DNA of 64,000 nucleotides from Candidatus Cloacimonadales bacterium. Lineage in GTDB: Bacteria; Cloacimonadota; Cloacimonadia; Cloacimonadales; JAIOQZ01. Shown here piece by piece: positions 2,273 to 36,700 of the stretch; position 1 is the stretch's first letter, and the number at the start of each line of letters is the position of its first letter. The stretch covers positions 1,632,001-1,696,000 of the forward strand of contig OY762463.1 in the NCBI GenBank assembly GCA_963665815.1. Direction: 5' to 3'. The translations under genes and the position numbers were made by a program. The notes beneath the pieces are model-generated. The model worked only from the letters and a program-made list of their open reading frames with translations, searched no databases and was not told the origin of the DNA.

Positions 2273-3301
2273 TTACTTGTTTACTGACTTCTCAGAGAAA
2301 GTTAACTTAACACCTTCCCCACAGTTTCTGCACATTTTTATTGCAGATCTGTTCGTCAGAATGGTATTCCTCATTTTCTGGAATTTTTCGTTCTTAAAAA
2401 TAGATTTTACGGAATTTGTTTTTACATTGCCAACAGGATAATCAATATCTTTGTCGAAACAACAGACTGCCATTTCCCCATTCCAGTTTATCACAGGCTG
2501 ATCCCAGATTCTGCGGCAGCGATTCTTAATACCAAACTTCAACTCAAAATCATCACCTGAAATCTTGTAACGTCTGTATTTGGGGTTTTCCGGTAGAAAA
2601 TTCTTGATGTCATCTTTTTCATAAATCTGAACTGTCTTCAACGAAAGTGAATCTACTCCCAATTCCTTAGCCAGATTACGAATTGACTCTATTTCATGTT
2701 CATTATGTTTCATTACAATAAACTGCCAGAGAATTTTAGGGAATATTGACTTCTTCTTCTTCTTTGCTTCAACAAGCTTCCTGACATTCTCTTTAACCTT
2801 ATCAATTTCACCATTGATGCGGTACTGATTATATGTTTCCTGAGAAGCTCCATCAAGAGATACAATAAGTCTATCAAGTCCTGAATCCACTATTTCCTCA
2901 GCAGGTGGCAGAATGTTAGCATTCGTGGAAACCAATGTATACAGACGCTTAGAGTGTGCATATTTGATCATCTTCACCATGTCTTTATTCAGGAAAGGTT
3001 CTCCCTGATTCCACAAAATCAGCATAAAAGCATATTCGGAAACTTCATCTATCACCTTTTTATACAATTCAAAATCCATGTATCCCTTTGCCCTTTTGAG
3101 GGTTCCGTTTCCGGAAGGACACATAGGACACCGAAGATTACAAATATTGGTCGGTTCAATCATTATAACACCGGGCATTCCCCATACGTATGCCTTTCGG
3201 GTTAAAATCGAAAAACCGTAAGATGCATATTTAAGCAGAGAATTGAACAATCTTTTCCAGGTGAAAATTCTAAAAAAAACATTTATCTTTCTTTTAAGCA
3301 T
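2273..3301 (-). CDS. Radical SAM protein with C-terminal SPASM/twitch-like domain
   Basis: CNLRCPMC motif, GEP and SLDG motifs, C-terminal CRRIW...GEMAVCC...CRNC. Confidence 0.85.
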   Translation of the reverse strand: MLKRKINVFFRIFTWKRLFNSLLKYASYGFSILTRKAYVWGMPGVIMIEPTNICNLRCPMCPSGNGTLKRAKGYMDFELYKKVIDEVSEYAFMLILWNQGEPFLNKDMVKMIKYAHSKRLYTLVSTNANILPPAEEIVDSGLDRLIVSLDGASQETYNQYRINGEIDKVKENVRKLVEAKKKKKSIFPKILWQFIVMKHNEHEIESIRNLAKELGVDSLSLKTVQIYEKDDIKNFLPENPKYRRYKISGDDFELKFGIKNRCRRIWDQPVINWNGEMAVCCFDKDIDYPVGNVKTNSVKSIFKNEKFQKMRNTILTNRSAIKMCRNCGEGVKLTFSEKSVNK

Positions 3302-3309
3302 AGCTTCCT

Positions 3310-5244
3310 CTATTGAGTTTTCCTTTCTTCATTTTTTACAATCAGCATTTCCAGTAAGAACAACCCAAGAACAATCAGGACAATAATTCTCCATAATTCA
3401 TAACCATATCTGGTATGCAGAACATTGTTAAACCAGTCATTTTCCAAGACATTAAGATTCTTTATCCGTAATGAGTCGACCGGTATATATGTACTCTCTT
3501 TCTTATCAATATTTACAGCAATTTTGTCTGTTCTATCTCCATTAAGGCTATATATTCCGGATTCTTTAAGAATCAGTTCTCGTTCAGTCATTATGTTACC
3601 GTCAGGTAGAATAACTGAATTGACTCCCCGTAGCTTATCTCCTACAAGATACCTTTCAGAAGCAAAGGCTTCCTGATTCTGCATTTGAGCAGCACGGAAC
3701 AACAGTACAGGGAATACTTTATCGTAAACAAGTGTGTTATTGGTATTACTGAAGTCTATCAACCACAGAATACTGTTATTTCTTTCCAGAATAAGAGGTT
3801 TAGAATTTCCTCCTGCCAGCACAGTTGTATTACTCGATCTGGCATCAAAATATCCATATACAGAATGTTCTTCTTTATCCTCGTCCAATATCTTTGTTAT
3901 CTCATGATAATTATTGAACTCCGTAATTATTATCTCTTCGTTCACATAGTCGTTTATGTTGACAGAAAAAATATCTGCAAGATCAGATTTCCATTGTTGA
4001 TCAAGCTGTTCACTGGCAAAGAACATGAAGTTCCTGCCGGTGTTATTCATCTCTCTGAGCAATGCTGAAAGCTTGGTAGAGTATGCCGGATTATAGAGAA
4101 CAACAACATCATAAGCTGTCATTGACTTAAGATTTTCTGTATTTACATTTTTCAAGTATCTTACATTCTCTCTGCTTCCGGAATATATGTTCAGAATAGT
4201 CCTTACTGGCAATGGGACATCTTTCTCGGATCTGCATATTACTGCAATATCCTGTTTCATTTTGTTATAATATGAGAAATATGCCTTGTTATCAAACGAT
4301 AGTCGTTCATCATCAACTTCTATATAACCGTTGTACCAGCCATTTCTTTCAAATCTGACAGGTAGAGAAAGCTCTCTTGTCTGTCCTGCTTTAAGGGAAA
4401 CACTTCGTTCCTGAACTGTCTGTTCATTAACAATCAATCTGTATATCTGATCTTCAACATCCTGAGAAGAATGGTTTGTCATACTGAAAACAACTTCTTT
4501 CTGTTGATTTCTATCAACATACCTGTAACTGATGTGAGCATTACTACAGCTTATATTGCGTATACTTTCCATATCTGAGATTCTAACAAAATTTACAGGA
4601 ATGTCTGAAACCATATTCTCCGAGTAAACATAATTCTGCATATCCGTGAAAACAACAATCTCCTTGTTAGGCAGATGAATCTTATCTAAGAGATAGTAAG
4701 CCTTATCGAGAACTTCATTGAAATCCATGATATCAGAAACAGGTTGGACGGATTCCAGAGTCTTCTTATTAACTTTTCCCTGTGTCATATCTGAGATAAA
4801 TCCGTTGTATCCCGAATCAAATGTCAGGACTGCACAATAATCCTGAGATGTCAGAATACTGTTTATTTTTTGAGCATTTTCTTTTGCTCTTTCAAGATTT
4901 GTTATTTCCGACTCCAGATAATCCATAGAATATGAGTTATCAATAATCATTACAATAGCTGTCGGGGGATGTTTGTCCGAAGCCTTAAATATTCTGTGTC
5001 TGACAGCCGGTCGGGCAATAGCGAGAACACTTAGAACAATAATCAGAATCCTTATAATAAGCAGAATAATATTCTTGATTGTAACTCTTTTGGTCTGCTG
5101 TTTCGTTATCTGCTTGAGAAACATCAATGAACTGAAAACCAGCTTATCAGGTCTTCTTTTAGCAAACAGATAAATCAGAATTGGAACAACTGCCGTAGAA
5201 AGCAGTGCAAGAAATCCTGAGTTTAAGAATGACAGTTGAAACAT
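3310..5244 (-). CDS. BatA N-terminal/vWA domain membrane protein
   Basis: N-terminal LSFLN...P.LIYL...FSSL.FL BatA-type segment, vWA MIDAS DNSYSM, C-terminal LWR transmembrane helix. Confidence 0.8.
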   Translation of the reverse strand: MFQLSFLNSGFLALLSTAVVPILIYLFAKRRPDKLVFSSLMFLKQITKQQTKRVTIKNIILLIIRILIIVLSVLAIARPAVRHRIFKASDKHPPTAIVMIIDNSYSMDYLESEITNLERAKENAQKINSILTSQDYCAVLTFDSGYNGFISDMTQGKVNKKTLESVQPVSDIMDFNEVLDKAYYLLDKIHLPNKEIVVFTDMQNYVYSENMVSDIPVNFVRISDMESIRNISCSNAHISYRYVDRNQQKEVVFSMTNHSSQDVEDQIYRLIVNEQTVQERSVSLKAGQTRELSLPVRFERNGWYNGYIEVDDERLSFDNKAYFSYYNKMKQDIAVICRSEKDVPLPVRTILNIYSGSRENVRYLKNVNTENLKSMTAYDVVVLYNPAYSTKLSALLREMNNTGRNFMFFASEQLDQQWKSDLADIFSVNINDYVNEEIIITEFNNYHEITKILDEDKEEHSVYGYFDARSSNTTVLAGGNSKPLILERNNSILWLIDFSNTNNTLVYDKVFPVLLFRAAQMQNQEAFASERYLVGDKLRGVNSVILPDGNIMTERELILKESGIYSLNGDRTDKIAVNIDKKESTYIPVDSLRIKNLNVLENDWFNNVLHTRYGYELWRIIVLIVLGLFLLEMLIVKNEERKTQ

Positions 5245-5255
5245 TCAGTCTCCGT

Positions 5256-6263
5256 TTATTCACCGAAAGATATTGTAAGCAGATACTTAGCAGTATCAAT
5301 ATTCAGATCATTCACAACCATTGCAAACTCAAAATTTATCTTATCATAACTATATGTTGAACCCATTGTGACATATATGTCTTTCTGTGAAGAAAAATCT
5401 CTGCTGAAAACGCCTGTTCTCACACTTGAATTCTTTCTTGAACTTCCCAGAATTGAATAATTTCTGACTATTCCAAAATGATATGTCTGCTTCATGCTCT
5501 TCCTGACATACCCGGTAACAGTTGAGATAAAAGCACCTTCTTCATTGCCATATTGATTACCAAAGGCAAAACGCTGTTTTAGAGTCACATTCCCACTCTT
5601 CTTCCAGTACAATTGAGATACAATGTCATAAACAACAAGTCCGGATGAATAGTTCCCTGATTTATATAAAAAACCCAGATCAGTAGAAAATCCGTGAACT
5701 CTGTCATCAATAAAGTCCTCATTAATAATCACATCGCTTGTAACATCATCTTTCTTGTATATCAGACGTCCAAACATATACTTGAAATTCAGTCCGAAAG
5801 AAGCTCCTTTTCTTTTTTCAGCGTAAGTAAATCCAACTGAATTCAATGTATAGGAACTGTAATCAGTGTATGTTTTGCCAGAATCGCTGTATGTGTTTGT
5901 CTCAGATAAATCTGCAAGAGGCTGAATAGAGATAGCTCCCTGTTTGGCAACAGCATTTGCATATACAAACTGGCTTCTTTTTAGTTTATTCGAGTTTTCA
6001 ATAAGAAGTCCGGTGTTTTCATTACTGCTGTTTCTCATCTGATAGGATACTGAAGCCTTCATACTGTTTAGATATGCAAGTATCGCAGGATTATTATATT
6101 CAGGAGCAGAACAACCTCTATAAGTAACATTGCTTCCGCCAAGGCTTAATGAAATTGCAGACACCTGCTTTTCCGGTAAATGATACTCATAACGTCTTAT
6201 AGGAAATGCCGCAAGTTGAATCCCAACAAGCAATAATATAAATAATGATATAATTCTTTTCAT
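5256..6263 (-). CDS. Putative outer-membrane beta-barrel protein (PorV/FadL-like)
   Basis: Signal peptide, A.SLSLGG...YNNPA.L motif, alternating aromatic beta-strands, C-terminal aromatic strand. Confidence 0.5.
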   Translation of the reverse strand: MKRIISLFILLLVGIQLAAFPIRRYEYHLPEKQVSAISLSLGGSNVTYRGCSAPEYNNPAILAYLNSMKASVSYQMRNSSNENTGLLIENSNKLKRSQFVYANAVAKQGAISIQPLADLSETNTYSDSGKTYTDYSSYTLNSVGFTYAEKRKGASFGLNFKYMFGRLIYKKDDVTSDVIINEDFIDDRVHGFSTDLGFLYKSGNYSSGLVVYDIVSQLYWKKSGNVTLKQRFAFGNQYGNEEGAFISTVTGYVRKSMKQTYHFGIVRNYSILGSSRKNSSVRTGVFSRDFSSQKDIYVTMGSTYSYDKINFEFAMVVNDLNIDTAKYLLTISFGE

Positions 6264-7393: not shown

Positions 7394-8809
7394 TCAATCC
7401 TTTGTAACCTGATTCTTAACATAATATTCCTCAAGTACATGCTGTCCAACTTGCTTAAGTAAAAAAATGTAAACCTTTAGAAGATTTTCAATCTGCTTTC
7501 TGAATTTTAAACATTCATAAATATTGTTTTTAAAACTTCCATCTGAGGCAAAATTGATATAACAGGAAGAACATAAATATCTTGCCCAGCAATTAGCACA
7601 TGTTTTCTCTCTGAACTCAATCCATTTATTAACAATAACTGACATTCCCTGATAATCCAGTCCATCTTCAACAGAACCTATTTTAAAATCATGATCTATC
7701 TTCTCACAAATGTAATATGATCCCTCAGATGAAACAAAAAGCTTCTGATTTCCAGGAACACATGTTTTATAGCTTATGTACTCACCATACTCACGCTTAT
7801 GAATAAAAGAAAGTGAATCCATAAAAATATGATTATCCAAAGACATATCTCCGCTTTTCAGACCTTGCACTAAGTCAAAGATTTCGGAGTTACCTTTTAC
7901 ACTATCCATGTCACTGTTAAGAAAATACTCGGTATAATACTGCTTTCTCTCATCATGTGTTGGATGCATTCTGGATATTCTCAGATTCAATTTAAGATTC
8001 TTTCGTAAATCAACAAGTTTGTTGTATTCATCTAAATTTGTAACAGTAGCCAACAATAGAATATTCTGACTATGCTTATCGATTTTACTTTTGATTAACT
8101 CAATATTTCGCTCTACTATATTGTATGTGAATGTTCCGTTAGCATGGACTCTATGTTTATCATGAATCTCTTTCAACCCATCAAAACTTATTGAAATGTT
8201 AAATGCATGCTTTACTAAATATTCAATGTTCTCTGAATCAAGTAGATATCCATTTGTTGTTATTGCATATCTAATGTTAAGATTTAAAGTGCTGCAATAC
8301 TGTACAATCTTTTCTATCAGATCCATATTAAGTAAAGGTTCTCCCCCATAAAATCCTACAAGAAGGTCTTTTCTACCGTTCTTTAAGCAAATCTCGTATA
8401 CTTTTTGAATCGCAGCAATCGCTATTTCATAGGTCATTACTTTGCTGGAATGTTTTCTCAATTTATTTTCTTCGTAAGAACCACCATAAATACAATAAGA
8501 ACATCTGAAATTGCAGTTTTCTGTAATACAAAGAGTTATCGCTTCAGGGCAAATACTCTCAGCATTTACTTCAGGTTTAAAGTACACTGCATCCTTATCA
8601 TCGATACTACTTAACAGAGTTTGAAAATCATTGTAAATTTCTCTCGCATTCCTGAATATCCCTATATATCTTTCGACATAGTCTTCCCCAGACATTGATA
8701 TCAAGCTATTCAATGTTTTATACACCACTTCATTAATTCTGACCATTTGTCCTGTTACATCAATATAAATGTAAAACTCATTCTCAAACTTGAATTTCTT
8801 AATATTCAT
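7394..8809 (-). CDS. Radical SAM/SPASM peptide maturase (cluster 1)
   Basis: TENCNFRCSYCIY, FYGGEPLL, ITTNG; SPASM cysteines CVPG..LFV..G..YICEK and CANCWARYLCSSC..C; N-terminal ~80 aa RRE-like extension. Confidence 0.9.
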   Translation of the reverse strand: MNIKKFKFENEFYIYIDVTGQMVRINEVVYKTLNSLISMSGEDYVERYIGIFRNAREIYNDFQTLLSSIDDKDAVYFKPEVNAESICPEAITLCITENCNFRCSYCIYGGSYEENKLRKHSSKVMTYEIAIAAIQKVYEICLKNGRKDLLVGFYGGEPLLNMDLIEKIVQYCSTLNLNIRYAITTNGYLLDSENIEYLVKHAFNISISFDGLKEIHDKHRVHANGTFTYNIVERNIELIKSKIDKHSQNILLLATVTNLDEYNKLVDLRKNLKLNLRISRMHPTHDERKQYYTEYFLNSDMDSVKGNSEIFDLVQGLKSGDMSLDNHIFMDSLSFIHKREYGEYISYKTCVPGNQKLFVSSEGSYYICEKIDHDFKIGSVEDGLDYQGMSVIVNKWIEFREKTCANCWARYLCSSCYINFASDGSFKNNIYECLKFRKQIENLLKVYIFLLKQVGQHVLEEYYVKNQVTKD

Positions 8810-9789
8810 TACCGGCTCAACCTGAATTTATAATAATTCTGTGAACCAGAATCTTGAATATGAACAAATTTGTCATCCACAATCATTGTATTCATAACAG
8901 TATAAATATTATCGGGAATCTTCCAGAATTGAATAAGATTAAAATTACTGTCATATTTACAGAGATACTCTCGAATCTCGAAAGCAGCTTTTATCTGCGA
9001 AGAACTTGAGTTTTTGTAATCTATTTTTGCATCAGTATTTCCCATAAACGTATGAATCACAAATATCTCATTATCAGAAGAATCGATGTTCAACACATAA
9101 GACTTCTCTGTTGGAAGATTGTCTGAAAACAAATTCTCAACTGAAATTAGCTCGTTTTTAACTTCATCATACATATAGATGTTTGATTTGTACTGAGTAA
9201 ATGCTAAATAATATTTTCCATTAGATTTCAACAATGAATTTTCTCTTTCCGTTCTTTCTATACCTATGTCATCGAATAACTTACTAAGGTCAATCCTTTG
9301 CTTTACTGAATCATTTTCTATGTTGAAGTACTTGCAGCCTGGGAGAGCATAGAATTGGGAGAAAGACACTTTGCCTTCATCCAGATATAAATCTGAAGGC
9401 AATACAGCTTTCATTGAAGAAAGAAATTCACCTTCTATGCTAAAGGTTGAGATTCTATTACTACCAATATCCGATACCAGTAAATTATCTCCAACAACAA
9501 GTATTTTCCCATTTAAAGACAATTCTCCGGGACCTTTACCTTCTTTACCAATCTTGTGAATAAATGAATAATCCTCTGAACTATATACATATACTGAGTG
9601 AGATGTATCATAGAAGAAAATCTTCCCGTCACTATATTCTACATCGAAAAATCCCATATTCATTTCACAATTTTCCTGCCATCCTAATGAATCTGCAACG
9701 GTTAAAGAACCTTCTTTCAATCGTGAGCTACATCCGAAAATTAACAGAGATAACAAAATAGATAAGACAATAATTCTTTCTTTAAACAT
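8809..9789 (-). CDS. 6-bladed beta-propeller (NHL/TolB-like) lipoprotein (cluster 1)
   Basis: Lipobox LIFGC; IGKEGKGPGEL and LLVSD..SNRISTFS..GEFL blade motifs; stop overlaps the rSAM start. Confidence 0.8.
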   Translation of the reverse strand: MFKERIIVLSILLSLLIFGCSSRLKEGSLTVADSLGWQENCEMNMGFFDVEYSDGKIFFYDTSHSVYVYSSEDYSFIHKIGKEGKGPGELSLNGKILVVGDNLLVSDIGSNRISTFSIEGEFLSSMKAVLPSDLYLDEGKVSFSQFYALPGCKYFNIENDSVKQRIDLSKLFDDIGIERTERENSLLKSNGKYYLAFTQYKSNIYMYDEVKNELISVENLFSDNLPTEKSYVLNIDSSDNEIFVIHTFMGNTDAKIDYKNSSSSQIKAAFEIREYLCKYDSNFNLIQFWKIPDNIYTVMNTMIVDDKFVHIQDSGSQNYYKFRLSR

Positions 9790-9832
9790 ATAAACTCCAA
9801 TTCATAGTGAGGGAATTATCTATTATTTATTG

Positions 9833-10003
9833 TTATTTAGAATTTGAAGATTGACCACCAAGAAGGTCGTCAATGTAAGCATTTGAAGAGTGAACACTTG
9901 ATGCATGTGCAACGTCGCATTCACAGACTGATTTTCTGCCTTTAACTTCGTTTTCATCACTTGTTGTAACAGGGCTAGAAACTACATCATAAGTACTTGT
10001 CAT
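9833..10003 (-). CDS. Putative RiPP precursor peptide, 56 aa: MTSTYDVVSSPVTTSDENEVKGRKSVCECDVAHASSVHSSNAYIDDLLGGQSSNSK
   Basis: Translated by hand (below the ORF-track cutoff). Strong SD TAAGGAG 6 nt before ATG 10003, TAA at 9835-9833, CxC motif, first gene before the propeller and rSAM. Confidence 0.8.
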   Translation of the reverse strand: MTSTYDVVSSPVTTSDENEVKGRKSVCECDVAHASSVHSSNAYIDDLLGGQSSNSK

Positions 10004-10104
10004 ACATTTCTCCTTAGATATTATAATTAGTTGTTGATAATTCCCTCATTTCCATACATAATTGCCTTTTGAGCATGTATGACAATTATCAAACACCATA
10101 AGAC

Positions 10105-10133
10105 AATAAAAAGTATTTTTTTTTACATGTCAA
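10105..10133 (-). promoter_or_regulatory. Putative sigma70 promoter of RiPP cluster 1
   Basis: TTGACA (10133-10128), 17-nt spacer, TTTATT. Confidence 0.5.
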
Positions 10134-10362
10134 TTTTATTTTCTTCAGAATATTTCTTAATGGTAAATTTAATTTTCCCCTTTCATTTTCATAGATTTTA
10201 AAAACAAGCATGATATTTTACATGAAAAATATCAGGACTGGAATTACGGTACCCTAATTAAAGAATAATTACCTCAAATGTATATTTCACACTTATAGAA
10301 GCAAATAAAACTACACTAACTCAAAAACTCGTATTACTGAAGTAGAGTAGATAAAATCCCAC

Positions 10363-10400
10363 AACAGGAGTTCAGAAATTTTTCGGACTCCTGTTTTTTT
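10363..10400. terminator. Intrinsic terminator-like hairpin, possibly bidirectional
   Basis: AACAGGAGT...ACTCCTGTT stem with a T-run on +, 10 nt beyond the stop of the minus-strand gene at 10410. Confidence 0.6.
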
Positions 10401-10409
10401 CTCGAAAAC

Positions 10410-11177
10410 TTACCCAAAATGCTTTGTAATTGCCTGAACACCTTTCTGCAGGATTTCTCTCAGTTGTAATTGTTTTTCGGAATCCACTTCTCCTGTCCAT
10501 TCATCCATAAAAGTTTTCTTAAACTCAATTGCCAGACACATTGCGTTATCGGGATAAAAATGATTAATCCAACGAGGGAAATATCCGCCGGGGAACTTCA
10601 CATTTACCCTGGCATCAATCTTATGGTCATCATAAGTCTCTTCCAGCATAGCTTGCTGGAATTCTTTCACGATAGGAAACCACTTCTCATCAAGATTGCT
10701 TGTTCCAATAATTATTTCAGGGTTCTTTTCAGGATCATCATATTCCTGCCCCGGTCCTAACCTGTGATGATTATAAGAATGTATATCCAGCACCAGAAAT
10801 TTACCGAACCTTTTCCTCATCTCATCCAGATGATACTTGATTCCTTTATAGAAATCGTCATATATCGCAAGGCTTGCCTGTACCTGTTCTTCTGAGGGTT
10901 GGACTTTTCTGACAGTCATACCCCAGGCATCCTCCGGTTTTATATAGACAGCTCTGTCTCGAGGTCTGTTTAGATCGGTTTCAAAACGACTGAACTCGGC
11001 AATAACCGTATTCTTGCATATTTCTGTAAAAAAAGCTGTAAACGGATCTTCTTCTCTGAGCTGATCAGCATCGGAAATACCCAGATTAGCTTTTGTTAAT
11101 TCGTTGAGTTTATGGCCGTTATGCACGGCAGTACATATAAAGGGTTCCTGATATGTAAATGTTGATATTGCAGACAT
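10410..11177 (-). CDS. N-formylglutamate amidohydrolase family protein
   Basis: AVHNGH, REEDPFT, SRF..DLNR, LDIHSY, FPGGY and LAIEF motifs. Confidence 0.88.
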   Translation of the reverse strand: MSAISTFTYQEPFICTAVHNGHKLNELTKANLGISDADQLREEDPFTAFFTEICKNTVIAEFSRFETDLNRPRDRAVYIKPEDAWGMTVRKVQPSEEQVQASLAIYDDFYKGIKYHLDEMRKRFGKFLVLDIHSYNHHRLGPGQEYDDPEKNPEIIIGTSNLDEKWFPIVKEFQQAMLEETYDDHKIDARVNVKFPGGYFPRWINHFYPDNAMCLAIEFKKTFMDEWTGEVDSEKQLQLREILQKGVQAITKHFG

Positions 11178-13203: not shown

Positions 13204-13313
13204 ATGACTTCGCCCATATTTCTTTTGCCGATTTTTGTGTCAAGAAAAAATCGAAAATAATTTCGCTTGACGAATAACCATTCATTTGAAATACTAAATT
13301 TTTGAGGAAAAGA

Positions 13314-14810
13314 ATGTTTAGCGAAATAATTATAAATGTACATCCGTTTGAAAAACGGGTAGCCATCCTGGAAGACCATAAGTTGGTTGAGCTGTTTGTA
13401 GAAAAGAAACAGCAGGAGAATATTGTTGGTAATATCTATAAAGGTATTATCAAAGACATACTCCCTGGGATGGGTGCGGCCTTTGTAGATATAGGACTCG
13501 AAAGAACAGCATTCCTGCATTTCTCAGATATCGCTCCGGAATATCTTGATGGTTTCCATAATAAAAAACGTCAGAAAGGTAACGGTAGCGAAACGATTGC
13601 AAAATTCCTGAAAGAAGGTCAGGAAATTGTTGTCCAGATACAGAAAGGTCCTATAGGTAAAAAAGGAGCACGTCTTACGGGACAAATTTCTATTCCAGGA
13701 AAATTCCTGGTGTACTTCCCTAATAAGAAAAAGGTAGCTCTTTCCCGTAAGATTTCTTCGCACGCAGAAAGAAACAGAATAAAGGGAATAATTAATAAAG
13801 TTAAACATGATAATGTCGGTCTTATTATAAGAACTGATGCCGATGGAAACTCCGAAGAAGAATTCAAAGCTGAATATGACGGACTTCATAAAACCTGGAA
13901 GTTTATTGAAAAACAGACAAAGTATGAAGTCGCTCCCAGTTGCCTATACTCGGAAGGTAATCTTTTCAGTACTCTCATCAGAGACTTATTCAGCACTAAT
14001 ATAGATAGGCTTATTGTTGATGATAAACTTTTTAAATCTCAACTTGTTTCCAGCCTGAGAGCTGCTGCTCCTGAGCTGGTTAACAAAATGGAGCTATACT
14101 CTGAGGATTCTCCTATTTTTGATGCCTATGGAATTGAAAAAGAGATAAAGAGTATGTTTAATGCACGGTGTAATCTGCCAAGTGGTGGAAATATCGTGAT
14201 TGAACAGACCGAAGCACTATGTGCTATTGATATCAACACAGGAAGTTTTACAGGCTCCAGAAATTATCAGGAGACTGTGCGCAGAACTAATGTTGAAGCG
14301 GCGGCAGAAGCTGCCAGACAGATTCGACTCAGGAATCTGAGTGGGATAATGGTAATAGATTTCATAGATATGCTTGACGAAAATAATAAGAATGAAGTTT
14401 TGGAAACATTAAGAGCTATCCTCAAGAGGGATAGAGCTAAAAATAAAGTCTTTCCTTTCGGACCTCTCGGCCTGGTGCATATTACCAGAAAGAGAACAAG
14501 ACAAAATCTGCTGGTCTCTTATTCAGAGCACTGTCCATGCTGTAAGGGAACCGGTAGAGTAATGGCACGCGATTCTGTTGCCATGCAGATATACAGATGG
14601 CTGAGCAGATCGGAGTATTTTATCAGAAACACTCCCCTGCGAATCGTTGTCCACCCGAATGTGAAAGCATTTCTAGATAAAAACCCTACATATTTCATCG
14701 ATATTCCTAACGATATATTTATTGTTTCAGAGGAAGACTTTAAACCCGATCAGTACAAGATCTTCAATAATCGAAATAATAAAGAAATTACAGCGAAATT
14801 TTCTACTTAG
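13314..14810 (+). CDS. Rne/Rng family ribonuclease
   Basis: VGNIYKG S1 domain, AAFVDIG, KGARLT, IDINTG, LRNLSG.MVIDFIDM, CPCCKGTG. ATG at 13314 follows a GAGG SD. Confidence 0.93.
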   Translation: MFSEIIINVHPFEKRVAILEDHKLVELFVEKKQQENIVGNIYKGIIKDILPGMGAAFVDIGLERTAFLHFSDIAPEYLDGFHNKKRQKGNGSETIAKFLKEGQEIVVQIQKGPIGKKGARLTGQISIPGKFLVYFPNKKKVALSRKISSHAERNRIKGIINKVKHDNVGLIIRTDADGNSEEEFKAEYDGLHKTWKFIEKQTKYEVAPSCLYSEGNLFSTLIRDLFSTNIDRLIVDDKLFKSQLVSSLRAAAPELVNKMELYSEDSPIFDAYGIEKEIKSMFNARCNLPSGGNIVIEQTEALCAIDINTGSFTGSRNYQETVRRTNVEAAAEAARQIRLRNLSGIMVIDFIDMLDENNKNEVLETLRAILKRDRAKNKVFPFGPLGLVHITRKRTRQNLLVSYSEHCPCCKGTGRVMARDSVAMQIYRWLSRSEYFIRNTPLRIVVHPNVKAFLDKNPTYFIDIPNDIFIVSEEDFKPDQYKIFNNRNNKEITAKFST

Positions 14811-15696: not shown

Positions 15697-17349
15697 ATGA
15701 CTTGTAATGAATTTGTAACTAATGTAAGTACATTGATTGAAAAACATCATAATGTGCTTGAAAATGTCTCAAGGAATACTCTCATACAAGAGAGTATTGA
15801 CAACGGCGAAACCATGGTTTCTAAGAATGGGTCATTAGTCACCTGGACGCCTAAAGAATCAACCGGCAGAAGCCCTAAGGATACATATATTGTATCTCAT
15901 GAAGAATCTAAAGGTACAATTGACTGGGATTCTCCTAATAACATCGCTCTTAGCCCTGAAACATTTGATTTGCTGTTTGAGGATGCTTTAGACACGTTAT
16001 CTAAAAAAAACAAGATATACGTGACTGATCGTGTTATCGGTGCTGATGTAAAGTATGCTCTGCCTACAAAAACCATTACTGACAAAGCTGTTAGCGCATT
16101 ATTCACTGACAATATGTTCAGACCGGTTCATGAGGATATCAACAAAAGCGTATTCCATAACAATGGTTTTACTCTTATTCTCGTTCCGGATGATAAACTC
16201 AATGCAGATAAGTATTGCGGTCGTCTCAGAGAATGCAAACCGGGTCAGACATCAAACATGGCAATAGCTATTGATTTTGACAGAAGAATCGGTATTGTAT
16301 ACGGTTCTCAGTACTGCGGCAGTGCTAAAAAACTAATGTTTACAGTAATGAACTATTACCTTCCTGATGTTGGTGTTCTGCCTTTACATTGTTCAGCAAA
16401 TGAAGGCAAGAATCAGGATTCAGCATTATTACTCGGTCTATCCGGAACAGGAAAAACTACCCTCTCAGCAGATCCAAACAGAGCTCTTCTTGGTGATGAT
16501 GAGCATGGATGGAGCGATGATGGTATCGCGAACTTCGAAAATGGATGTTATGCAAAACTTATTAATCTTAATAAGGAAAAAGAACCTGAAATTTACAATG
16601 CTGTTTTCCATGACGATGATTACCTCAATCATGGTTCAATTGTTGAAAACTGTATGATGTATCCTGACGGAACATTCGATCTCGATGATGAACGAATCAC
16701 CCCTAACTCCAGAGGATCATACCCACTGGAATTCTTATCTAACATCAAACCGGAATCTGTCGCAGGACATCCTAAGACAATACTGTTCCTCACTGCTGAT
16801 GCGAATGGGGTTATCCCTCCAATATCCAGATTGAATGCGGATCAGGCTATGCTCTGGTTCCTCATGGGATACACAAGTAAACTCGCCGGAACTGAAACAG
16901 GTATTACAGAACCGGTATCAACTTTCTCAAGATTCTTTGGCGAACCTTTCATGCCGCGTAATCCTGATGTTTATGCTAACATGCTTGGTGAAAAGATGAA
17001 AGAATTTGGTACTAAGGTTTATCTTGTGAATACAGGCTGGAGTCACGGACCATACGGTGTTGGTTCCAGAATGGATATAAACCTGACAAGAACTCTTGTA
17101 AATTGCGCTCTTGACGGTACACTTGAAAAAGCTGAATATACTAAAGATGATATCTTCCATCTTGAAGTTCCTGTAAAATTACCGGGAATAGACTCTGATG
17201 TTCTTATTCCAAGAAATACCTGGCAGGATGAAGATGCTTTTGACAAGAGAGCAGCAAAACTTGCAGAAGATTTCGCAAAACATTTCGATAAAGCATATGG
17301 CAATAAAAACCTCGGTGAAAACATCGAGAAACAATGCCCGGGTAAATAA
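15697..17349 (+). CDS. pckA: Phosphoenolpyruvate carboxykinase (ATP)
   Basis: TGRSPKD, LHCSAN, GLSGTGKTTLS, GDDEHGW and FENGCYAK motifs. Confidence 0.97.
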   Translation: MTCNEFVTNVSTLIEKHHNVLENVSRNTLIQESIDNGETMVSKNGSLVTWTPKESTGRSPKDTYIVSHEESKGTIDWDSPNNIALSPETFDLLFEDALDTLSKKNKIYVTDRVIGADVKYALPTKTITDKAVSALFTDNMFRPVHEDINKSVFHNNGFTLILVPDDKLNADKYCGRLRECKPGQTSNMAIAIDFDRRIGIVYGSQYCGSAKKLMFTVMNYYLPDVGVLPLHCSANEGKNQDSALLLGLSGTGKTTLSADPNRALLGDDEHGWSDDGIANFENGCYAKLINLNKEKEPEIYNAVFHDDDYLNHGSIVENCMMYPDGTFDLDDERITPNSRGSYPLEFLSNIKPESVAGHPKTILFLTADANGVIPPISRLNADQAMLWFLMGYTSKLAGTETGITEPVSTFSRFFGEPFMPRNPDVYANMLGEKMKEFGTKVYLVNTGWSHGPYGVGSRMDINLTRTLVNCALDGTLEKAEYTKDDIFHLEVPVKLPGIDSDVLIPRNTWQDEDAFDKRAAKLAEDFAKHFDKAYGNKNLGENIEKQCPGK

Positions 17350-31412: not shown

Positions 31413-33143
31413 TCATCCATGATTGAGCATATTGAAGTACTCTCCCTTCACTTCCATTAATTCGCCGTGACTTCCCTCTTCAGATATTGCTCCATTACTC
31501 ATAACACATATCTTGTCACATTCTTTTATTGTAGACAACCTGTGTGCGACAATTATCACAATAATATCATCCGGTAATTTGTGCAGTGTTTCCATTATGC
31601 TTTTTTCACTGATTGGATCAATGTTTGATGTTGCTTCATCCAATAATAGAATTTTAGGATTCTTTATCAGAGCTCTTGCCAGACTTATCCTTTGTTTTTG
31701 CCCAATTGAAAGACTGTTTCCTTTTACTCCGACATGCGTATCATATTTATCCGGCAAGTTCATTATTTGAGCATGGACAGATGCCATTTTACAAACAGCT
31801 ACAACATCTTCATATCCTGCTGACATGTTCGCAAATCGTATATTATCCATAATACTGCCATCAATTAGAACTGGTTCCTGATCGACAATTCCGATATATT
31901 TTCTTAATGCTACAATTTGACTATCACTTAGCTTATCACCATTTATATAAATCTCACCTGATATTGACTTGTGTAATCCTGATAATATTTTCAATAAAGT
32001 TGTTTTTCCACATCCGGACACTCCCACAATACCTATTTTCTCTCCCTGATTAATCTCAATATTCACATTTTCCAATATAGGCTTGTCTTCTTTGTAAAAA
32101 AATTTCAATTCTCTGATTGAAAGCCTTTCAATTACAGATATGTTATAGTTGTAATCTATTACTTCACTCGGGAATGTCATTATTTCTTTAACTCGCTTCA
32201 GGGAAACCATTGCCGTTTGCAATCTTACATTTAAATCAATAAGATTCCTTGCAGGATTGAACAAATACCTGATAAAAGAATTGAATGCAATCATAGAACC
32301 AATTGTCAAACGGTCGTTAATAATCTCATATCCACCATACCCAATAATTATTAATGGAATCAGACCAATTATCATATTGGAAGAAACCTGGTAGATACTG
32401 GTTATCTTTGTAAGTTTTACAGATTCTCTATATGCTGACTTCGATGAAGAGAAAAACTGGTAAATACTGAATCGGCTTCGAAGAAACTGTTTTATCAGAC
32501 GAATAAGTGATAAACACTGCTCCAACGTAGAAACGCTTTTTGCCATTACTTCGTATGTAACCTCTGTTTGCGCTTTAATTCTCTTTCCGAAGAACACGGA
32601 TAACCATACATATGGAATTATTAGAATTACTGAGAATAATGCAAGCTTGAAATGAATTGTAAAAATCACTGATAATCCTGCAATTAAATACAGAAGATCC
32701 TTGAGTACCGCTACAAATGTTTCTGCGAAAAAAGATCTCAGACCTTCAGAATCACTATTTATCCTGGAAAGAAGATATCCTGAACTGTACTTGTTAATTG
32801 TACTCAGAGGAGCATTATTAAGCCTTTCTAAAAGTGCAACTTTAATATCCAATATGATTTTATCATTTACCCGTTTCAACATTAAAGAATGAATATAGGC
32901 TACCGCATTCTGAAATAATAGTATTGATAAAGTTATACCAACTAATACTATTAGTTCCGTTAAGTTCTTCCCGGGTAATGTAACATCAATAATTCTTCTT
33001 GTTATTAATGGTGTAGGCAAGATCAGTAGAGAAAGGATAATGATCAGACAGCAGACAAGCAGAATACTCTTCATGTATTTTTTATAGAAGTTCAGATATA
33101 AAAATCTGATAAAATTCAAGTTTTCATTCTTTGCTATTTTCAT
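31413..33143 (-). CDS. ABC exporter (TMD+NBD), no C39 peptidase domain (cluster 2)
   Basis: N-terminal TM helices, GVSGCGKTT, LSIGQKQR, LLLDEATS, VAHRLST; 576 aa. Confidence 0.92.
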   Translation of the reverse strand: MKIAKNENLNFIRFLYLNFYKKYMKSILLVCCLIIILSLLILPTPLITRRIIDVTLPGKNLTELIVLVGITLSILLFQNAVAYIHSLMLKRVNDKIILDIKVALLERLNNAPLSTINKYSSGYLLSRINSDSEGLRSFFAETFVAVLKDLLYLIAGLSVIFTIHFKLALFSVILIIPYVWLSVFFGKRIKAQTEVTYEVMAKSVSTLEQCLSLIRLIKQFLRSRFSIYQFFSSSKSAYRESVKLTKITSIYQVSSNMIIGLIPLIIIGYGGYEIINDRLTIGSMIAFNSFIRYLFNPARNLIDLNVRLQTAMVSLKRVKEIMTFPSEVIDYNYNISVIERLSIRELKFFYKEDKPILENVNIEINQGEKIGIVGVSGCGKTTLLKILSGLHKSISGEIYINGDKLSDSQIVALRKYIGIVDQEPVLIDGSIMDNIRFANMSAGYEDVVAVCKMASVHAQIMNLPDKYDTHVGVKGNSLSIGQKQRISLARALIKNPKILLLDEATSNIDPISEKSIMETLHKLPDDIIVIIVAHRLSTIKECDKICVMSNGAISEEGSHGELMEVKGEYFNMLNHG

Positions 33144-33161
33144 TGTCAGTGTATTCAGAAA

Positions 33162-34556
33162 TTACGAAGTTTCACTCTGGTTGAAGTAATTATCGATGCT
33201 TTCCTTACCTACATGGTCAAGAAGTCTGACATATAGTTGAAGCATACCTTCAATTTCACTTTTCTTTTCTGAGCATATTGAATTACTTGGAGATATATTT
33301 TCTGATCTCACGAAACTCACATAGCATAAATCGCAAAGATGAGCTCCCCAGCACTTGCTGCAGTTCTTCCCTTTGAAATAAAGCCAATCTCTTTCAATTT
33401 CATTTTTTCTGGCAGAAATTATTCCTTTATCAAGATCTCCTATGGGCATTGCGTGATCAATTTTCTCACACATATGAAAATTTCCTTCGGGAGAGACAAA
33501 CAACATTGCATTTCCCGGAGAACAGGCATGATAATTGACATCACTTCCTGAGTTTCTGAAATGTATCCTCTTTATACTTGTAATCAGATCCAGGTCTCCA
33601 CTCAAAAGCTTGCGATTTTTAAATCTATCTATAAATCCTGCTCTTCTAGCTCCGGTAATATCATCAATTCTACTTACTTCATCTTCATCAAAAGATTCAA
33701 TTTTTTCAGCATCATCGCTATCCCAAATCATAGATACATGTGAAAAAATTGGATTATCCTGTTGCAGATCAAAAAGTTCAACGAAAATTCCGGGAGTTGC
33801 CGCAGTAGCTACGAAATTAACATATTCCCTGTAATAATCAGGATACCTGTCTGAAATAGGCTTCAAGTTGTTCATTATTCTATCATAGGTCGGTTCACCA
33901 TTCAAAGCGATTCTGTATTTGTCATGAATTTCTTTTGTCCCATCTACACTTACAAATAATCTGATCTTGTTGGCTAAAAAGAAATCGATATGCTCTTCTG
34001 ACATTGCATAACCATTAGTAGTAATTGAAAATGTTATTTCGGACGGAAGCTCTTTTAAGTTTTTCACAATGTATTTCATAATGTCGAAATTTAATAGTGG
34101 TTCTCCTCCATAAAATCCGATATTCAGGTTCTCTTCCACATTGTAGTTTTCGTCAATCCATCTGATAAACTTGTCTGCTATCGTATAAGACATTTTCTTT
34201 GTTGAACTTGTTCTTGTGTAAGAATAGCTGTCCGAGTAGATACAGTACTTGCATTTTAAATTGCAGGCTTCAGTTAACCCAATAACAATTTTGAAAGGAT
34301 TTTTCTTCCTGTTTTCGTTCTTGATAGGCAAAAATGAGAATCCATTGCTTTCAGCTCTGTTTTTCATGTAATTCCGGAATTTATCGAAAACTTTCTCTAT
34401 TTCTGCATTTTCAGCATACTTATCAATATACTCATCTCTTGACATGCCCAAAAGATCATAAAATGTATTATACATGAATTCATTGATCTTAATAATGTTC
34501 GAGTTTAAAGAATCATAAAAGTAGACACCACTTACAGCTCTAAACTTTTTAAGCAC
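33162..34556 (-). CDS. Radical SAM/SPASM peptide maturase (cluster 2)
   Basis: TEACNLKCKYCIY, FYGGEPLL, ITTNG; CSPG..LFV..G.FHMCEK and CSKCWGAHLCDLC..C; RRE-like N-terminus. Confidence 0.9.
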   Translation of the reverse strand: MLKKFRAVSGVYFYDSLNSNIIKINEFMYNTFYDLLGMSRDEYIDKYAENAEIEKVFDKFRNYMKNRAESNGFSFLPIKNENRKKNPFKIVIGLTEACNLKCKYCIYSDSYSYTRTSSTKKMSYTIADKFIRWIDENYNVEENLNIGFYGGEPLLNFDIMKYIVKNLKELPSEITFSITTNGYAMSEEHIDFFLANKIRLFVSVDGTKEIHDKYRIALNGEPTYDRIMNNLKPISDRYPDYYREYVNFVATAATPGIFVELFDLQQDNPIFSHVSMIWDSDDAEKIESFDEDEVSRIDDITGARRAGFIDRFKNRKLLSGDLDLITSIKRIHFRNSGSDVNYHACSPGNAMLFVSPEGNFHMCEKIDHAMPIGDLDKGIISARKNEIERDWLYFKGKNCSKCWGAHLCDLCYVSFVRSENISPSNSICSEKKSEIEGMLQLYVRLLDHVGKESIDNYFNQSETS

Positions 34557-34573
34557 TTCATCCTCCAGTATAT

Positions 34574-35596
34574 TTATGATCCCTTCACTTCGGATTTCGT
34601 TAACTTAAATATTATTCCATTATAGTTAGATACCAGAAATACTTTTCCATTTGAGGACAGTATTTCTCCTGACAAAGTCATCATATCTCCGGGTAGCTCA
34701 CATGAAGATTTCAATTCTCCTGTGATTGAGTATTCGCAAACAAACTCTCTTATATCATAAAAATGCTTAATATCTTCTATCTTTGTCAGTGATGAATTTT
34801 TCTTCTGGGCTGGATCTACACCATATGCTCTTTCAACAACGTAAAATCTGTCGTTCATCAGCACTGCATTACTTGTTTTTGAGTATTCCGGAACAGCATC
34901 CCTGTTTACTGATGATGAGAACTGAATTTTCTCATTATTCAAATCTTTGATACACCCAACTCTATTTATTGGTACTCCTATTAGTGAATTCTCATATTTT
35001 ATAATATCTATATGTTTATTTTCTTCCTTTAAATCATTATCCGAGCAGAATTGATCCAACTTCCTCACAGTTTTAAACTCTCCATTATTATATACCGTTA
35101 ACTTATAATCAGGTGCAAAATGAGCAGTTGTAACATATATGCTGTCTTCATAATTGTATACTTTACCAATCGGGTGGAATTTCTCAGCTTTAAGAAAATC
35201 ACCTTGCTTAGAAATCCATTGTATTCTGGAATTAGCAAAATCACCTACAACTATATCACCATTTTTATCAAATGTGAATGAGTTAGGATAAAGAAATTCT
35301 CCGGGACCTCTGCCCTTACTTCCAAATTTTCTCAGAAATTTCAAACTGTTAATCTCGTAAACATAAAAAACTGCATTATCAATATCCAATACGTACAGTT
35401 CTTCACCATCAATATTGTGAATATTGTTAGCTCCAAAAGTAAAGTTTTCATCATCCTGCCATCCCAATGAATCAGCTACTACTAATACAGATTTTGAACC
35501 ACTTTCACCACTCTTGTCCTGCCTGACACAAGAAACAGAGTTCAAAATTATAAGTGTTAATACTGTGAACGTTAAACTTGCTATTCCTTTCCTCAT
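34574..35596 (-). CDS. 6-bladed beta-propeller lipoprotein (cluster 2)
   Basis: Lipobox-like NSVSC; FGSKGRGPGEFLYP; IVVGD..NSRIQW...G.FL. Confidence 0.8.
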   Translation of the reverse strand: MRKGIASLTFTVLTLIILNSVSCVRQDKSGESGSKSVLVVADSLGWQDDENFTFGANNIHNIDGEELYVLDIDNAVFYVYEINSLKFLRKFGSKGRGPGEFLYPNSFTFDKNGDIVVGDFANSRIQWISKQGDFLKAEKFHPIGKVYNYEDSIYVTTAHFAPDYKLTVYNNGEFKTVRKLDQFCSDNDLKEENKHIDIIKYENSLIGVPINRVGCIKDLNNEKIQFSSSVNRDAVPEYSKTSNAVLMNDRFYVVERAYGVDPAQKKNSSLTKIEDIKHFYDIREFVCEYSITGELKSSCELPGDMMTLSGEILSSNGKVFLVSNYNGIIFKLTKSEVKGS

Positions 35597-35669
35597 ATAT
35601 TCTCCTAAAATTAAGCTATCCGATGTTTTCCCTACTTATAAAATACAGCCCTTCAACTTAATTATCTTA

Positions 35670-35888
35670 CTATGATATACCTGAACTTGTATTGTTGCTG
35701 GATGAATTTACCAGTTTTCTGGCAGCATTCTGTTTAGCGCATCTTCTAGTTGATGCATCTCCAGCAGGATATGGTAAATTCTCACAAGTTTGACATTCCT
35801 GTGTGCTTCCACTGCCTGTGTCTTTATCAAGTGTAGAAGCTGTACTCACTATTTCCATTGAACATAAGTCAATTACATTATTATCCAT
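35670..35888 (-). CDS. Putative RiPP precursor peptide, 72 aa
   Basis: SD GAGGAG before ATG; four Cys including CQTC; Ser/Thr/Asn-rich; first gene of the propeller-rSAM-ABC operon. Confidence 0.82.
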   Translation of the reverse strand: MDNNVIDLCSMEIVSTASTLDKDTGSGSTQECQTCENLPYPAGDASTRRCAKQNAARKLVNSSSNNTSSGIS

Positions 35889-36150
35889 AATTTCTCCTCA
35901 TAATTTTATTACATCAGATAGCTTTTATTGTTTATTGTTTTGTTTAGTATTTTCTATCTTGCTAAGTAAAAAATATGTCGAAGGGGAAAACAAATGAGAT
36001 CCCTCTTACCTCTACATATATAAATCTTTTCTAAAGAACTTTTTGATATGTGTCAAGTTTTTTGTTTATACAAACTCATTTATGAATATTAAATTCATTC
36101 TAAAGAGATTAATGATTATCATATCAATTCCTGCTCACCATTATTTCCAC

Positions 36151-36637
36151 CTTCCCTCACAAAAAGCGGAAGTTGGTGAATGTTCTCCAAACCTTCACCG
36201 AGTCATAATAGCACAATCTTTCAGTTGTAAGTAGCCGATCTTATTCTTTTTTACTGTATAATAAATTTTCCCGTGAAGAAATCCTGAAGCCTTGGAAGGA
36301 TTTCAGGTGAGATTTATGGTTCCAGCTTGCTGGAAATACATTTAAAAAAGATGTCATTTCTTTTGCTTCGTTTTCTTTAGTCATATAAAGAAAATGAAGG
36401 ACTGTATCAATACTCTATCTCTTTTTGTTCTCTTCCCTCACAAAAAGCAGGAGTTGGTGAATGTTTTCCAAACCTTCACCGAGTCATTAAGTCAAAGAAA
36501 TTACAGAAAATCAATACTCTATCTCTTTTTGTTCTCTTTCCTCACAAAAAGCAGAAGTTGGTGAATGTTTTCCAAACCTTCACCGAGTCATTAAGTCAAA
36601 GAAATCACAGAAAATCAATACTCTATCTCTTTTTGTT
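36151..36637. repeat. 104-bp tandem repeat (2.2 units, 36406-36637) plus a separate 56-bp core copy (36151-36206)
   Basis: ATCAATACTCTATCTCTTTTTGTT starts at 36406, 36510 and 36614. The core CCTCACAAAAAGC...GTTGGTGAA-N13-TTCACCGAGTCAT occurs three times. Confidence 0.92.
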
Positions 36638-36700
36638 GACAGAAATTATCCCTTACAAGTTGATGTTCCTGAAAAAACATTAAAAAAGCAGGAGATTTCT

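Follow-up and report, generated by a model that had tools for sequence, protein, structure and literature searches.

Complementary segments bracketing radical-SAM RiPP precursor genes in a Candidatus Cloacimonadales genome and at distant maturase loci: candidates for an hbs-like mRNA clamp

To our knowledge, the proven long-range pairings between the 5′ and 3′ regions of bacterial mRNAs are few, namely those of hbs, icaR and the type I toxin mRNAs, and they are usually treated as one-off cases. For the lantibiotic gene lanA, the microcin C gene mccA and Rhodobacter pufBA, local hairpins or attenuating terminators raise the level of structural-gene mRNA over that of enzyme mRNA. Among type I toxin mRNAs, hok contains a 5′-3′ fold-back interaction, termed fbi. 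A 5′-3′ fold-back interaction is also described for the type I toxin mRNA aapA1 of H. pylori (PMC6733600).

The closest described system is the hbs mRNA of B. subtilis. According to Braun, Durand and Condon (2017, PMC5737220), a fully complementary 14-nt pair with an energy of −19 kcal/mol joins the 5′ UTR of this mRNA to the 3′ UTR just before the terminator. Transcripts mutated in either arm had a shorter half-life, and stability was regained when compensatory mutations were present in both arms. Leader cleavage by RNase Y is limited by the pairing, and deletion of RNase III had no effect (PMC5737220).

In this study, we analyzed one 64,000-nucleotide stretch of DNA from a Candidatus Cloacimonadales bacterium (hereafter, the window), which carries two radical-SAM gene clusters. 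As in hbs, both clusters contain complementary segments of about 14 nt located in the 5′ UTR and past the stop codon of a short ORF. No literature linking RiPP precursors with bracketing stems was found in the paper library searched, and subscription journals may hold such reports.

Two bracketed precursor genes in the window

Cluster 1 consists of precursor 1, a 43-nt spacer, propeller 1 and then the overlapping maturase 1. Its features and those of its upstream surroundings, in window coordinates, are as follows.

7394..8809, minus strand: radical SAM/SPASM peptide maturase 1, 471 aa (TIGR04068, 226.7 bits, cutoff 500)
8809..9789, minus strand: propeller 1, 6-bladed beta-propeller lipoprotein-like protein (DUF5128), 326 aa (PF17170, 30.6 bits, cutoff 22.9; SD GGAG at 9798-9795)
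9808..9820, minus strand: stem 1, 3′ arm (13 nt), within the intergenic spacer that separates precursor 1 from propeller 1
9833..10003, minus strand: precursor 1 ORF, 56 aa, with a CECD motif, upstream of the propeller and radical SAM genes (SD AAGGAG at 10015-10010)
10036..10048, minus strand: stem 1, 5′ arm (13 nt), within the precursor 1 5′ UTR, paired in the minimum-energy and centroid folds
10128..10133, minus strand: TTGACA, possible −35 box for the precursor transcript, identified by eye, outside the repeat
10363..10395, minus strand: hairpin after the upstream FGase-family gene (10410..11177), likely terminator

The 56-aa ORF had no family match in Pfam or NCBIfam and is read as the likely precursor of a ribosomally synthesized and post-translationally modified peptide (RiPP) because of its gene position and Cys motif. 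In a search of the protein collection, the closest relatives of maturase 1 were ~33% identical, and propeller 1 had one close relative (P0122, 53% identical). The contig carrying the P0122 propeller also encodes a PckA that is 94% identical to the PckA of the window organism. The latter PckA also shares 69-72% identity with proteins that carry NCBI names from Cloacimonadota MAGs, a few differently labelled ones being among them, and a T9SS sorting domain is encoded within the window as well; both observations point to a probable relationship with Cloacimonadota.

Since the hairpin at 10363..10395 is likely a terminator, precursor 1 probably has its own promoter. The hexamer TTGACA at 10128..10133 may possibly serve as its −35 box; a promoter scan did not list this hexamer and returned other weak matches only. 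Terminator-like sites, taken as local GC-rich hairpins with a trailing U run, were absent from both scanned regions (9700-10420 and 35500-36700), and the reading as an intrinsic terminator or attenuator after the precursor was rejected. Rfam models at gathering thresholds matched four tRNAs only in the whole window.

The initial annotation of this DNA described a perfect 13-bp inverted repeat that runs from UTR to UTR and encloses precursor 1. This was confirmed: the 13-mers at 9808-9820 (TGAGGGAATTATC) and 10036-10048 are exact reverse complements of each other, and each arm occurs once within the 64-kb window. On the minus-strand mRNA, the helix has 13 bp, no G·U pairs and an energy of −18.7 kcal/mol, and its loop of 215 nt holds the entire precursor 1 cistron, which upholds the earlier statement that the pairing can loop out the whole ORF. 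A gap of 20 nt separates the 5′ arm from the precursor 1 SD, and both this SD and the start codon lie outside the helix, free in the loop. The 3′ arm begins 12 nt after the stop codon and ends 9 nt before the GGAG SD of propeller 1, a distance previously given as about 10 nt.

RNA folding, which had been suggested as a check, placed stem 1 in both the minimum-energy and the centroid fold. Its mean pair probability was 0.73, rising to 0.97 when the ORF was held unpaired, as under translation. The fold energy of the cluster 1 region as a whole was ordinary (z = −1.31, 10 of 100 shuffles).

A second cluster with the same gene order, in which a 72-aa ORF is followed by a propeller gene, a maturase gene and then an ABC exporter gene, is located at 31413-35924.

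31413..33143, minus strand: ABC exporter (permease/ATPase), last gene of cluster 2, assigned by family searches
33162..34556, minus strand: radical SAM/SPASM maturase 2, 31% identical to maturase 1 (TIGR04068, 223.8 bits)
34574..35596, minus strand: propeller 2 (DUF5128/NHL), 25% identical to propeller 1
35613..35626, minus strand: stem 2, 3′ arm (14 nt, one G·U), followed after 6 nt by the propeller 2 SD
35670..35888, minus strand: precursor 2 ORF, 72 aa, without detectable similarity to precursor 1
35911..35924, minus strand: stem 2, 5′ arm (14 nt), separated by 11 nt from the precursor 2 SD

With maturases sharing 31% identity, propellers sharing 25% and precursors that cannot be aligned, cluster 2 is an ancient paralog of cluster 1. 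Its stem comprises 14 bp with an energy of −19.5 kcal/mol, including one G·U pair on the minus-strand RNA that corresponds to a C-A mismatch on the plus strand, and its arm sequences are unrelated to those of stem 1. Stem 2 was present in the minimum-energy and centroid folds with a pair probability of 0.98, which was also 0.98 with the ORF held unpaired, and the whole-region fold energy of cluster 2 was notable (z = −3.29, 0 of 100 shuffles).

On the scale of the window, stem 1 alone is not remarkable. One perfect inverted repeat of at least 13 nt with a loop of 20-400 nt was observed per 64 kb, against a mean of 0.81 in 100 second-order Markov simulations. In a local test, in which the 107 nt upstream of precursor 1 were paired with the 43-nt spacer, a Watson-Crick helix of at least 13 bp was reached in 5 of 5000 dinucleotide shuffles, and in 92 of 5000 when G·U pairs were allowed. 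The agreement with the simulated mean and the 92 shuffles are what speaks for chance complementarity in AT-rich intergenic DNA. The significance of stem 1 comes from its context, because a second, similarly bracketed case exists in cluster 2.

This context was evaluated with a scan of the window for contiguous helices of at least 10 bp (Watson-Crick and G·U pairs, loop 80-500 nt), ranked by stacking energy. The coding (minus) strand contained 232 such long-range helices, and although only 3 of them enclose a precursor, the top two both do: rank 1 was stem 2 (−19.5 kcal/mol) and rank 2 was stem 1 (−18.7 kcal/mol), followed by a third helix at −17.9 kcal/mol. When both strands are counted (425 helices), stems 2 and 1 are separated by one plus-strand helix, formed between copies of a nearby 104-nt repeat (−19.2 kcal/mol, 3 G·U). 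In the standard test used throughout, which compares 180 nt upstream with 150 nt downstream of a precursor over 1000 dinucleotide shuffles, p was 0.002 for cluster 1 and ≤0.001 for cluster 2. A point against the clamp reading is that the RNAduplex energy of cluster 2, with loops allowed, was unimpressive, being matched by 704 of 5000 shuffles.

Stems at distant maturase loci

A profile search of genome contigs with the maturase alignment yielded at least 80 loci from many phyla, which are referred to below by L numbers. In their best segments, the listed loci matched the window maturase with 25-40% identity (25-34% for nearly all of them). Among the matches listed, the window genome and its near relative were absent, and weak propeller-like matches were found only in L050, L012 and L067.

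A precursor HMM built from obvious precursors retrieved 45 small Cys-rich ORFs from the 80 listed loci, all on the maturase strand. For these 45 distant precursors, the standard test gave p ≤ 0.001 in L024, L010, L028 and L046, p = 0.01 in L056, p = 0.017 in L018 and p = 0.02 in L077, with all remaining values above 0.08. The stem of L038 became positive once the start codon was corrected, the start chosen first having been located upstream of the 5′ arm. A narrower test, restricted to the 22 small ORFs that immediately precede the maturase gene, gave p ≤ 0.001 for three, 0.01 for one, 0.04 for two and p > 0.05 for the other 16.

A helix-first scan of the 80 listed loci ranked bracketing helices at the top in several of them. 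Inspection of 17 top helices by hand identified 6 that enclose Cys-rich precursor-like ORFs with an SD (L067, L046, L006, L038, L018 and L028); the stems of L006 and L067 surround Cys-rich ORFs missed by the HMM. The stems of L010 and L024 were also found helix-first. The other 11 inspected helices, mostly from GC-rich loci with implausible ORFs, were dropped as their enclosed ORFs were not precursor-like.

The maturases belong near a described family. TIGR04068 (CcpM) was the top-scoring family for both window maturases, although their 226.7 and 223.8 bits did not reach the curated cutoff of 500. The partner in the window is the DUF5128 propeller, and in the three Bacillota partners scanned a TIGR04066-like protein adjoins the maturase; hhalign of the two partner alignments indicated that the propeller is unrelated to the ~365-aa Bacillota partner (probability 0.14%). 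The window precursors were absent from the 45 matches of the precursor HMM and are not of the MKKLGKK...Cys-rich type. Both clusters are thus relatives, and not members, of the CcpM system, which combines a TIGR04068 maturase, a TIGR04066 partner and a Cys-rich precursor.

To compare cognate with non-cognate flanks, each upstream region was paired with the downstream regions of other loci. The set comprised the 2 window precursors and 44 distinct HMM precursors, with L038 given its corrected start and L025 dropped as a duplicate of L022. Helices of −16.5 kcal/mol or better were present in 9 of 46 cognate pairs versus 16 of 2050 cross-locus pairs, and at −18.5 kcal/mol or better the counts were 7 of 46 versus 6 of 2050. 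Measured against shuffles and cross-locus pairs, about 1 in 5 precursors of this maturase family carries a bracketing stem. The stem was absent in 37 of the 46 precursors and is therefore optional.

Altogether, 12 stems are considered here. Their cores have 12-16 bp and energies of −16.6 to −25.1 kcal/mol, and their loops span 215-344 nt. In 10 of the 12 stems, 13-54 nt separate the 5′ arm from the start codon, which places this arm immediately 5′ of the SD; the stop codon precedes the 3′ arm by 5-80 nt. Pair probabilities across the 12 stems ranged from 0.73 to 0.98, and from 0.78 to 0.99 with the ORF held open. In L006, L038, L028, L056 and L077, a terminator-like hairpin, read by eye, directly follows the 3′ arm. 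The hosts are the Cloacimonadota-like genome, several Bacillota and one Aminicenantes MAG.

Two of the distant stems have homologous arms, those of L010 (Halothermothrix MAG) and L024 (the cultured Dethiothermospora halolimnae SD1, with a 16-bp stem), and 13 shared pair columns could be compared between them. Three columns showed compensatory double changes (A-U to G-C, C-G to U-A and U-A to C-G), two showed U·G to U-A changes, eight were invariant and no pair was broken. The two loci are mutually dependent and count as one homologous pair, and the covariation covers these distant stems and not the window's own. The covariation check proposed initially therefore has a positive outcome for the L010/L024 pair. 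Together with the occurrence of unrelated arms in the same geometry in 12 stems, the compensatory change indicates that the pairing is maintained by selection. Given these changes, the excess of cognate over cross-locus pairs and the placement of the top two coding-strand helices, we regard chance complementarity as extremely improbable.

RNA pairing, DNA elements and the extent of the helix

Invertible DNA segments are bounded by inverted repeats, and their size range includes repeats of 12-16 bp a few hundred bp apart. Perfect inverted repeats of 12-16 bp at distances of 215-344 bp would fit this range, and a DNA-level inversion or cassette exchange had been named initially as the alternative to an RNA function. 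Such an element could consist of recombination sites that invert the precursor cassette (phase variation) or of paired operators of a DNA-looping regulator; for the latter, arms changing in concert would also be expected from two copies of one protein-binding site. Of the features typical of invertons, the flanking repeats, set a few hundred bp apart, were found, but a nearby recombinase and a shared motif were not. Recombinase, integrase, resolvase and transposase domains were detected in none of the 54 window ORFs (64 kb of a ~4-Mb genome) and in none of the 59 ORFs around 10 other positive loci, from which 10 radical SAM ORFs had been left out. Even the two stems of one genome share no arm sequence or motif. 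The arms always fall within transcribed sequence, one downstream of the presumed promoter but ahead of the SD and the other past the stop codon, and an interval of 13-54 nt from 5′ arm to start codon (10 of 12 stems) leaves scant room for an internal promoter.

The two strands also differ. Energies were unequal between strands in 5 of the 9 stems with p ≤ 0.02, and in 4 of these 5 (L010, cluster 2, L018 and L077) the sense strand was better by 4.7-6.5 kcal/mol, their mismatches being G·U pairs on the mRNA strand. Cluster 1 is the exception, with the antisense strand better by 2.0 kcal/mol through a terminal extension. With five informative stems, this asymmetry is suggestive of RNA. In addition, the 3′ arm lies directly before a terminator-like hairpin in five loci, and the arms are therefore probably parts of one short transcript. 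Taken together, the sequence comparison supports the reading of the stems as RNA, and the inversion or exchange of a DNA cassette did not hold up; we consider a DNA-level element of either kind highly improbable.

RNase III stems process rRNA precursors and the early mRNAs of phage T7, and typical RNase III substrates extend over about two helical turns. An RNase III-type stem, one of the initial proposals, would be cut as a duplex by the double-strand-specific nuclease and would release a precursor-only mRNA. The layout is compatible with this, as complementary segments bracketing a unit for release resemble the rRNA processing stems, and RNAduplex yields helices of 14-44 pairs if loops are permitted. 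However, when the core was fixed and the four 20-nt flanks were shuffled, 97 to 482 of 500 shuffles reached the observed energy in all 12 stems. A longer duplex beyond the core was thus rejected: the flanks pair no better than shuffled ones, and selection is therefore limited to the 12-16-bp core, which is below the length of usual substrates. Moreover, in the one tested analogue, hbs, deletion of RNase III had no effect (PMC5737220). A processing stem is therefore unlikely to be the explanation.

Several observations touch on translation. The next SD follows the 3′ arm after 9 nt in cluster 1, after 6 nt in cluster 2 and immediately in L018. In L054, the maturase SD itself is the partner of the precursor 5′ UTR, in a helix of 12 bp (p = 0.01). 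A translational device could limit or couple translation of the propeller gene through the stem before its SD, or it could bring the stop codon near the precursor SD for re-initiation, although ribosome recycling is pure speculation here. The interval separating the 3′ arm from the following gene varies widely, however, reaching 73 nt in L010, and in five loci the arm is followed by a terminator-like hairpin (by eye) and not by a gene; a shared function in downstream gene control is therefore excluded. We judge a translational device to be quite unlikely.

A translation-coupled switch had also been suggested, in which an upstream segment competes for the 5′ arm. The proposed competitor, UUGAUAAUU, is indeed present at 10092-10084, but its 9-bp helix (−5.6 kcal/mol) is at chance level, being reached by 208 of 2000 shuffles, and no counterpart was found in cluster 2 (842 of 2000 shuffles). 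The switch was abandoned on these grounds.

Proposed action and comparison with known systems

The core of the stems matches the hbs pairing in length and energy, and the same kind of action is therefore proposed. We hold with moderate confidence that the bracketing stem is an hbs-like clamp that protects the precursor message from decay. On the minus-strand mRNA of cluster 1, the 13 nt upstream of the precursor ribosome binding site would pair with 13 nt past the stop codon, turning the cistron into a 215-nt loop, and the cluster 2 clamp would work alike with its unrelated 14-bp pair. By analogy with hbs of B. subtilis, the clamp may hide single-stranded entry sites for an endonuclease; the organism has an RNase E/G homolog, whose gene lies at 13302..14810. 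A cut in the AU-rich downstream spacer would then leave the precursor segment with the base-paired 3′ end of the clamp, which would block 3′ exonucleases. The precursor segment would outlive the segment of propeller and maturase, yielding more substrate peptide than enzyme. As a secondary effect, translation of the next gene may be damped because the 3′ arm lies 6-9 nt from its SD.

Among the actions proposed initially, a stabilizing stem that favors precursor over enzyme mRNA is the one best supported by comparison. It is consistent with the paralog, the 10 distant stems with unrelated arms, the compensatory changes, the sense-strand G·U pairs and the hbs precedent; formation of the stem in vivo and the slowing of decay we infer from the analogy.

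The kind of element is already known from hbs. What appears to be new is its recurrence at one gene class across phyla and its use within operons, where the 5′ UTR is paired with an intercistronic spacer. The same device recurs at radical-SAM RiPP precursors with unrelated arms, and one homologous pair carries natural compensatory changes. If the stems stabilize the precursor message, they would explain an excess of substrate peptide over enzyme without a second promoter or attenuator. For heterologous expression of RiPP precursors, they would also supply a simple, portable design rule, in which the gene is flanked by two complementary segments of 12-16 nt, and genome mining would gain a new signature by which unannotated precursors can be recognized. 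A broader proposal is speculative and, as a whole, doubtful: bracketing stems might be a widespread, repeatedly evolved module of RiPP operons, in which a closed-loop mini-mRNA sets the precursor-to-enzyme ratio by insulation from decay and may also bring terminating ribosomes close to the precursor start for re-initiation, a bacterial counterpart of closed-loop translation in one gene class of at least three phyla.

Compared with the hairpins of lanA, mccA and pufBA, the presumed purpose is alike, namely more precursor than enzyme message from one operon. Those elements are local stem-loops downstream of the gene, whereas here a long-range helix with a loop of 215-344 nt brackets the cistron, and no terminator-like site was found in the scanned window regions. 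The RNase III stems of 16S and 23S rRNA likewise have complementary segments flanking the unit, but they are long duplexes, in contrast to the 12-16 bp conserved here.

The type I toxin mRNAs hok and aapA1 share with these loci a small ORF enclosed by end-to-end pairing of the mRNA, in a transcript that is stable. The pairing keeps the toxin mRNAs translationally inert until 3′ trimming, whereas the window stems leave the SD and start codon free. The window stems also differ from these mRNAs in having no antisense RNA or toxin context.

Relative to hbs (PMC5737220), several differences are evident. The 3′ arms in the window precede the next cistron in an operon spacer with no terminator-like site found, the bracketed gene encodes a peptide-natural-product precursor and not a nucleoid protein, and the host has an RNase E/G homolog where Bacillus has RNase Y and J1. 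The hbs pairing has been proven experimentally, whereas the stems described here are predicted from sequence. The similarities concern the architecture itself: the SD is left outside the helix, the core of 12-16 bp and −16.6 to −25.1 kcal/mol is like that of hbs, and in five distant loci the 3′ arm is located just before a terminator-like hairpin (by eye), as it is in hbs.

Divergence of the RiPP cluster and export in cluster 2

On a 445,929-bp contig of the nearest relative, PckA (P0124) was 94% identical to its counterpart in the window (15697-17349), whereas the propeller of the same relative (P0122) shared only 53% identity with the window propeller (8809-9789). Among the maturases listed by the searches, none was above 33% identity. 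These values indicate that the RiPP cluster either diverges at a far higher rate than the housekeeping genes do or was replaced.

When the cluster 2 exporter was compared with bacteriocin and HlyB-type exporter models, the alignment began only at about residue 130 of the models. A C39 peptidase domain was not found in this protein, so leader removal in cluster 2 would have to be the task of something other than its ABC exporter.

Other features of the window

The following features were recorded in the window:

31413-33143, minus strand: ABC exporter of cluster 2
2273-3301, minus strand: third radical SAM/SPASM protein, 342 aa
12836-13203, minus strand: four consecutive tRNA genes (Rfam)
36406-36509 and 36510-36613: copies of a 104-nt repeat, 97% identical
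36125-36228: diverged copy of the 104-nt repeat, 63% identical

The third radical SAM/SPASM gene lies immediately downstream of genes for a BatA/VWA protein (3310..5244) and a TraF-like protein (5256..6263). The tRNA row is located about 2.8 kb upstream of cluster 1.

The three direct copies of the 104-nt unit fall within 36125-36613, in the interval that separates cluster 2 from the gene for the glycine-cleavage P-protein. Each copy appears to contain a short hairpin, and the Rfam scan of the window gave no match to the repeat. The sole plus-strand long-range helix rivalling the precursor stems arises from these copies.

Bracketing helices and partner proteins in distant loci

Among the distant CcpM-like maturase loci (own coordinates), L054 carries a 12-bp helix at ~4485-4746 (-16.6 kcal/mol, p = 0.01) formed by the precursor 5' UTR and the Shine-Dalgarno region of the maturase gene. 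This is a variant of the bracket in which the 3' arm doubles as the ribosome-binding site of the next gene. In L046, the maturase reading frame (4728-6170) is broken into two ORFs (4728-5219 and 5244-6170), an interruption that could be genuine or could stem from faulty sequencing; despite the split, the precursor downstream of it (7604-7834) retains a perfect 16-bp bracket. At a single locus, L048 (7500-8611), four precursor paralogs stand in tandem, none of them with a significant bracketing helix (p = 0.17-0.88), and such multi-copy arrays may use a different solution.

In several loci, the stem-bracketed precursor is placed after a partner gene rather than before the maturase. A protein of 345-372 aa without Pfam match directly follows the maturase in nine loci (L010, L024, L046, L006, L038, L018, L028, L056 and L077). 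L067 has a 380-aa protein in this position, also without Pfam match, which contains a weak match to the window propeller and gave no match to TIGR04066, the partner-protein family of the CcpM system. The NCBIfam scan covered three of the nine partners (L010, L046 and L038), and all three matched TIGR04066 below its cutoff (137-183 bits vs 200).
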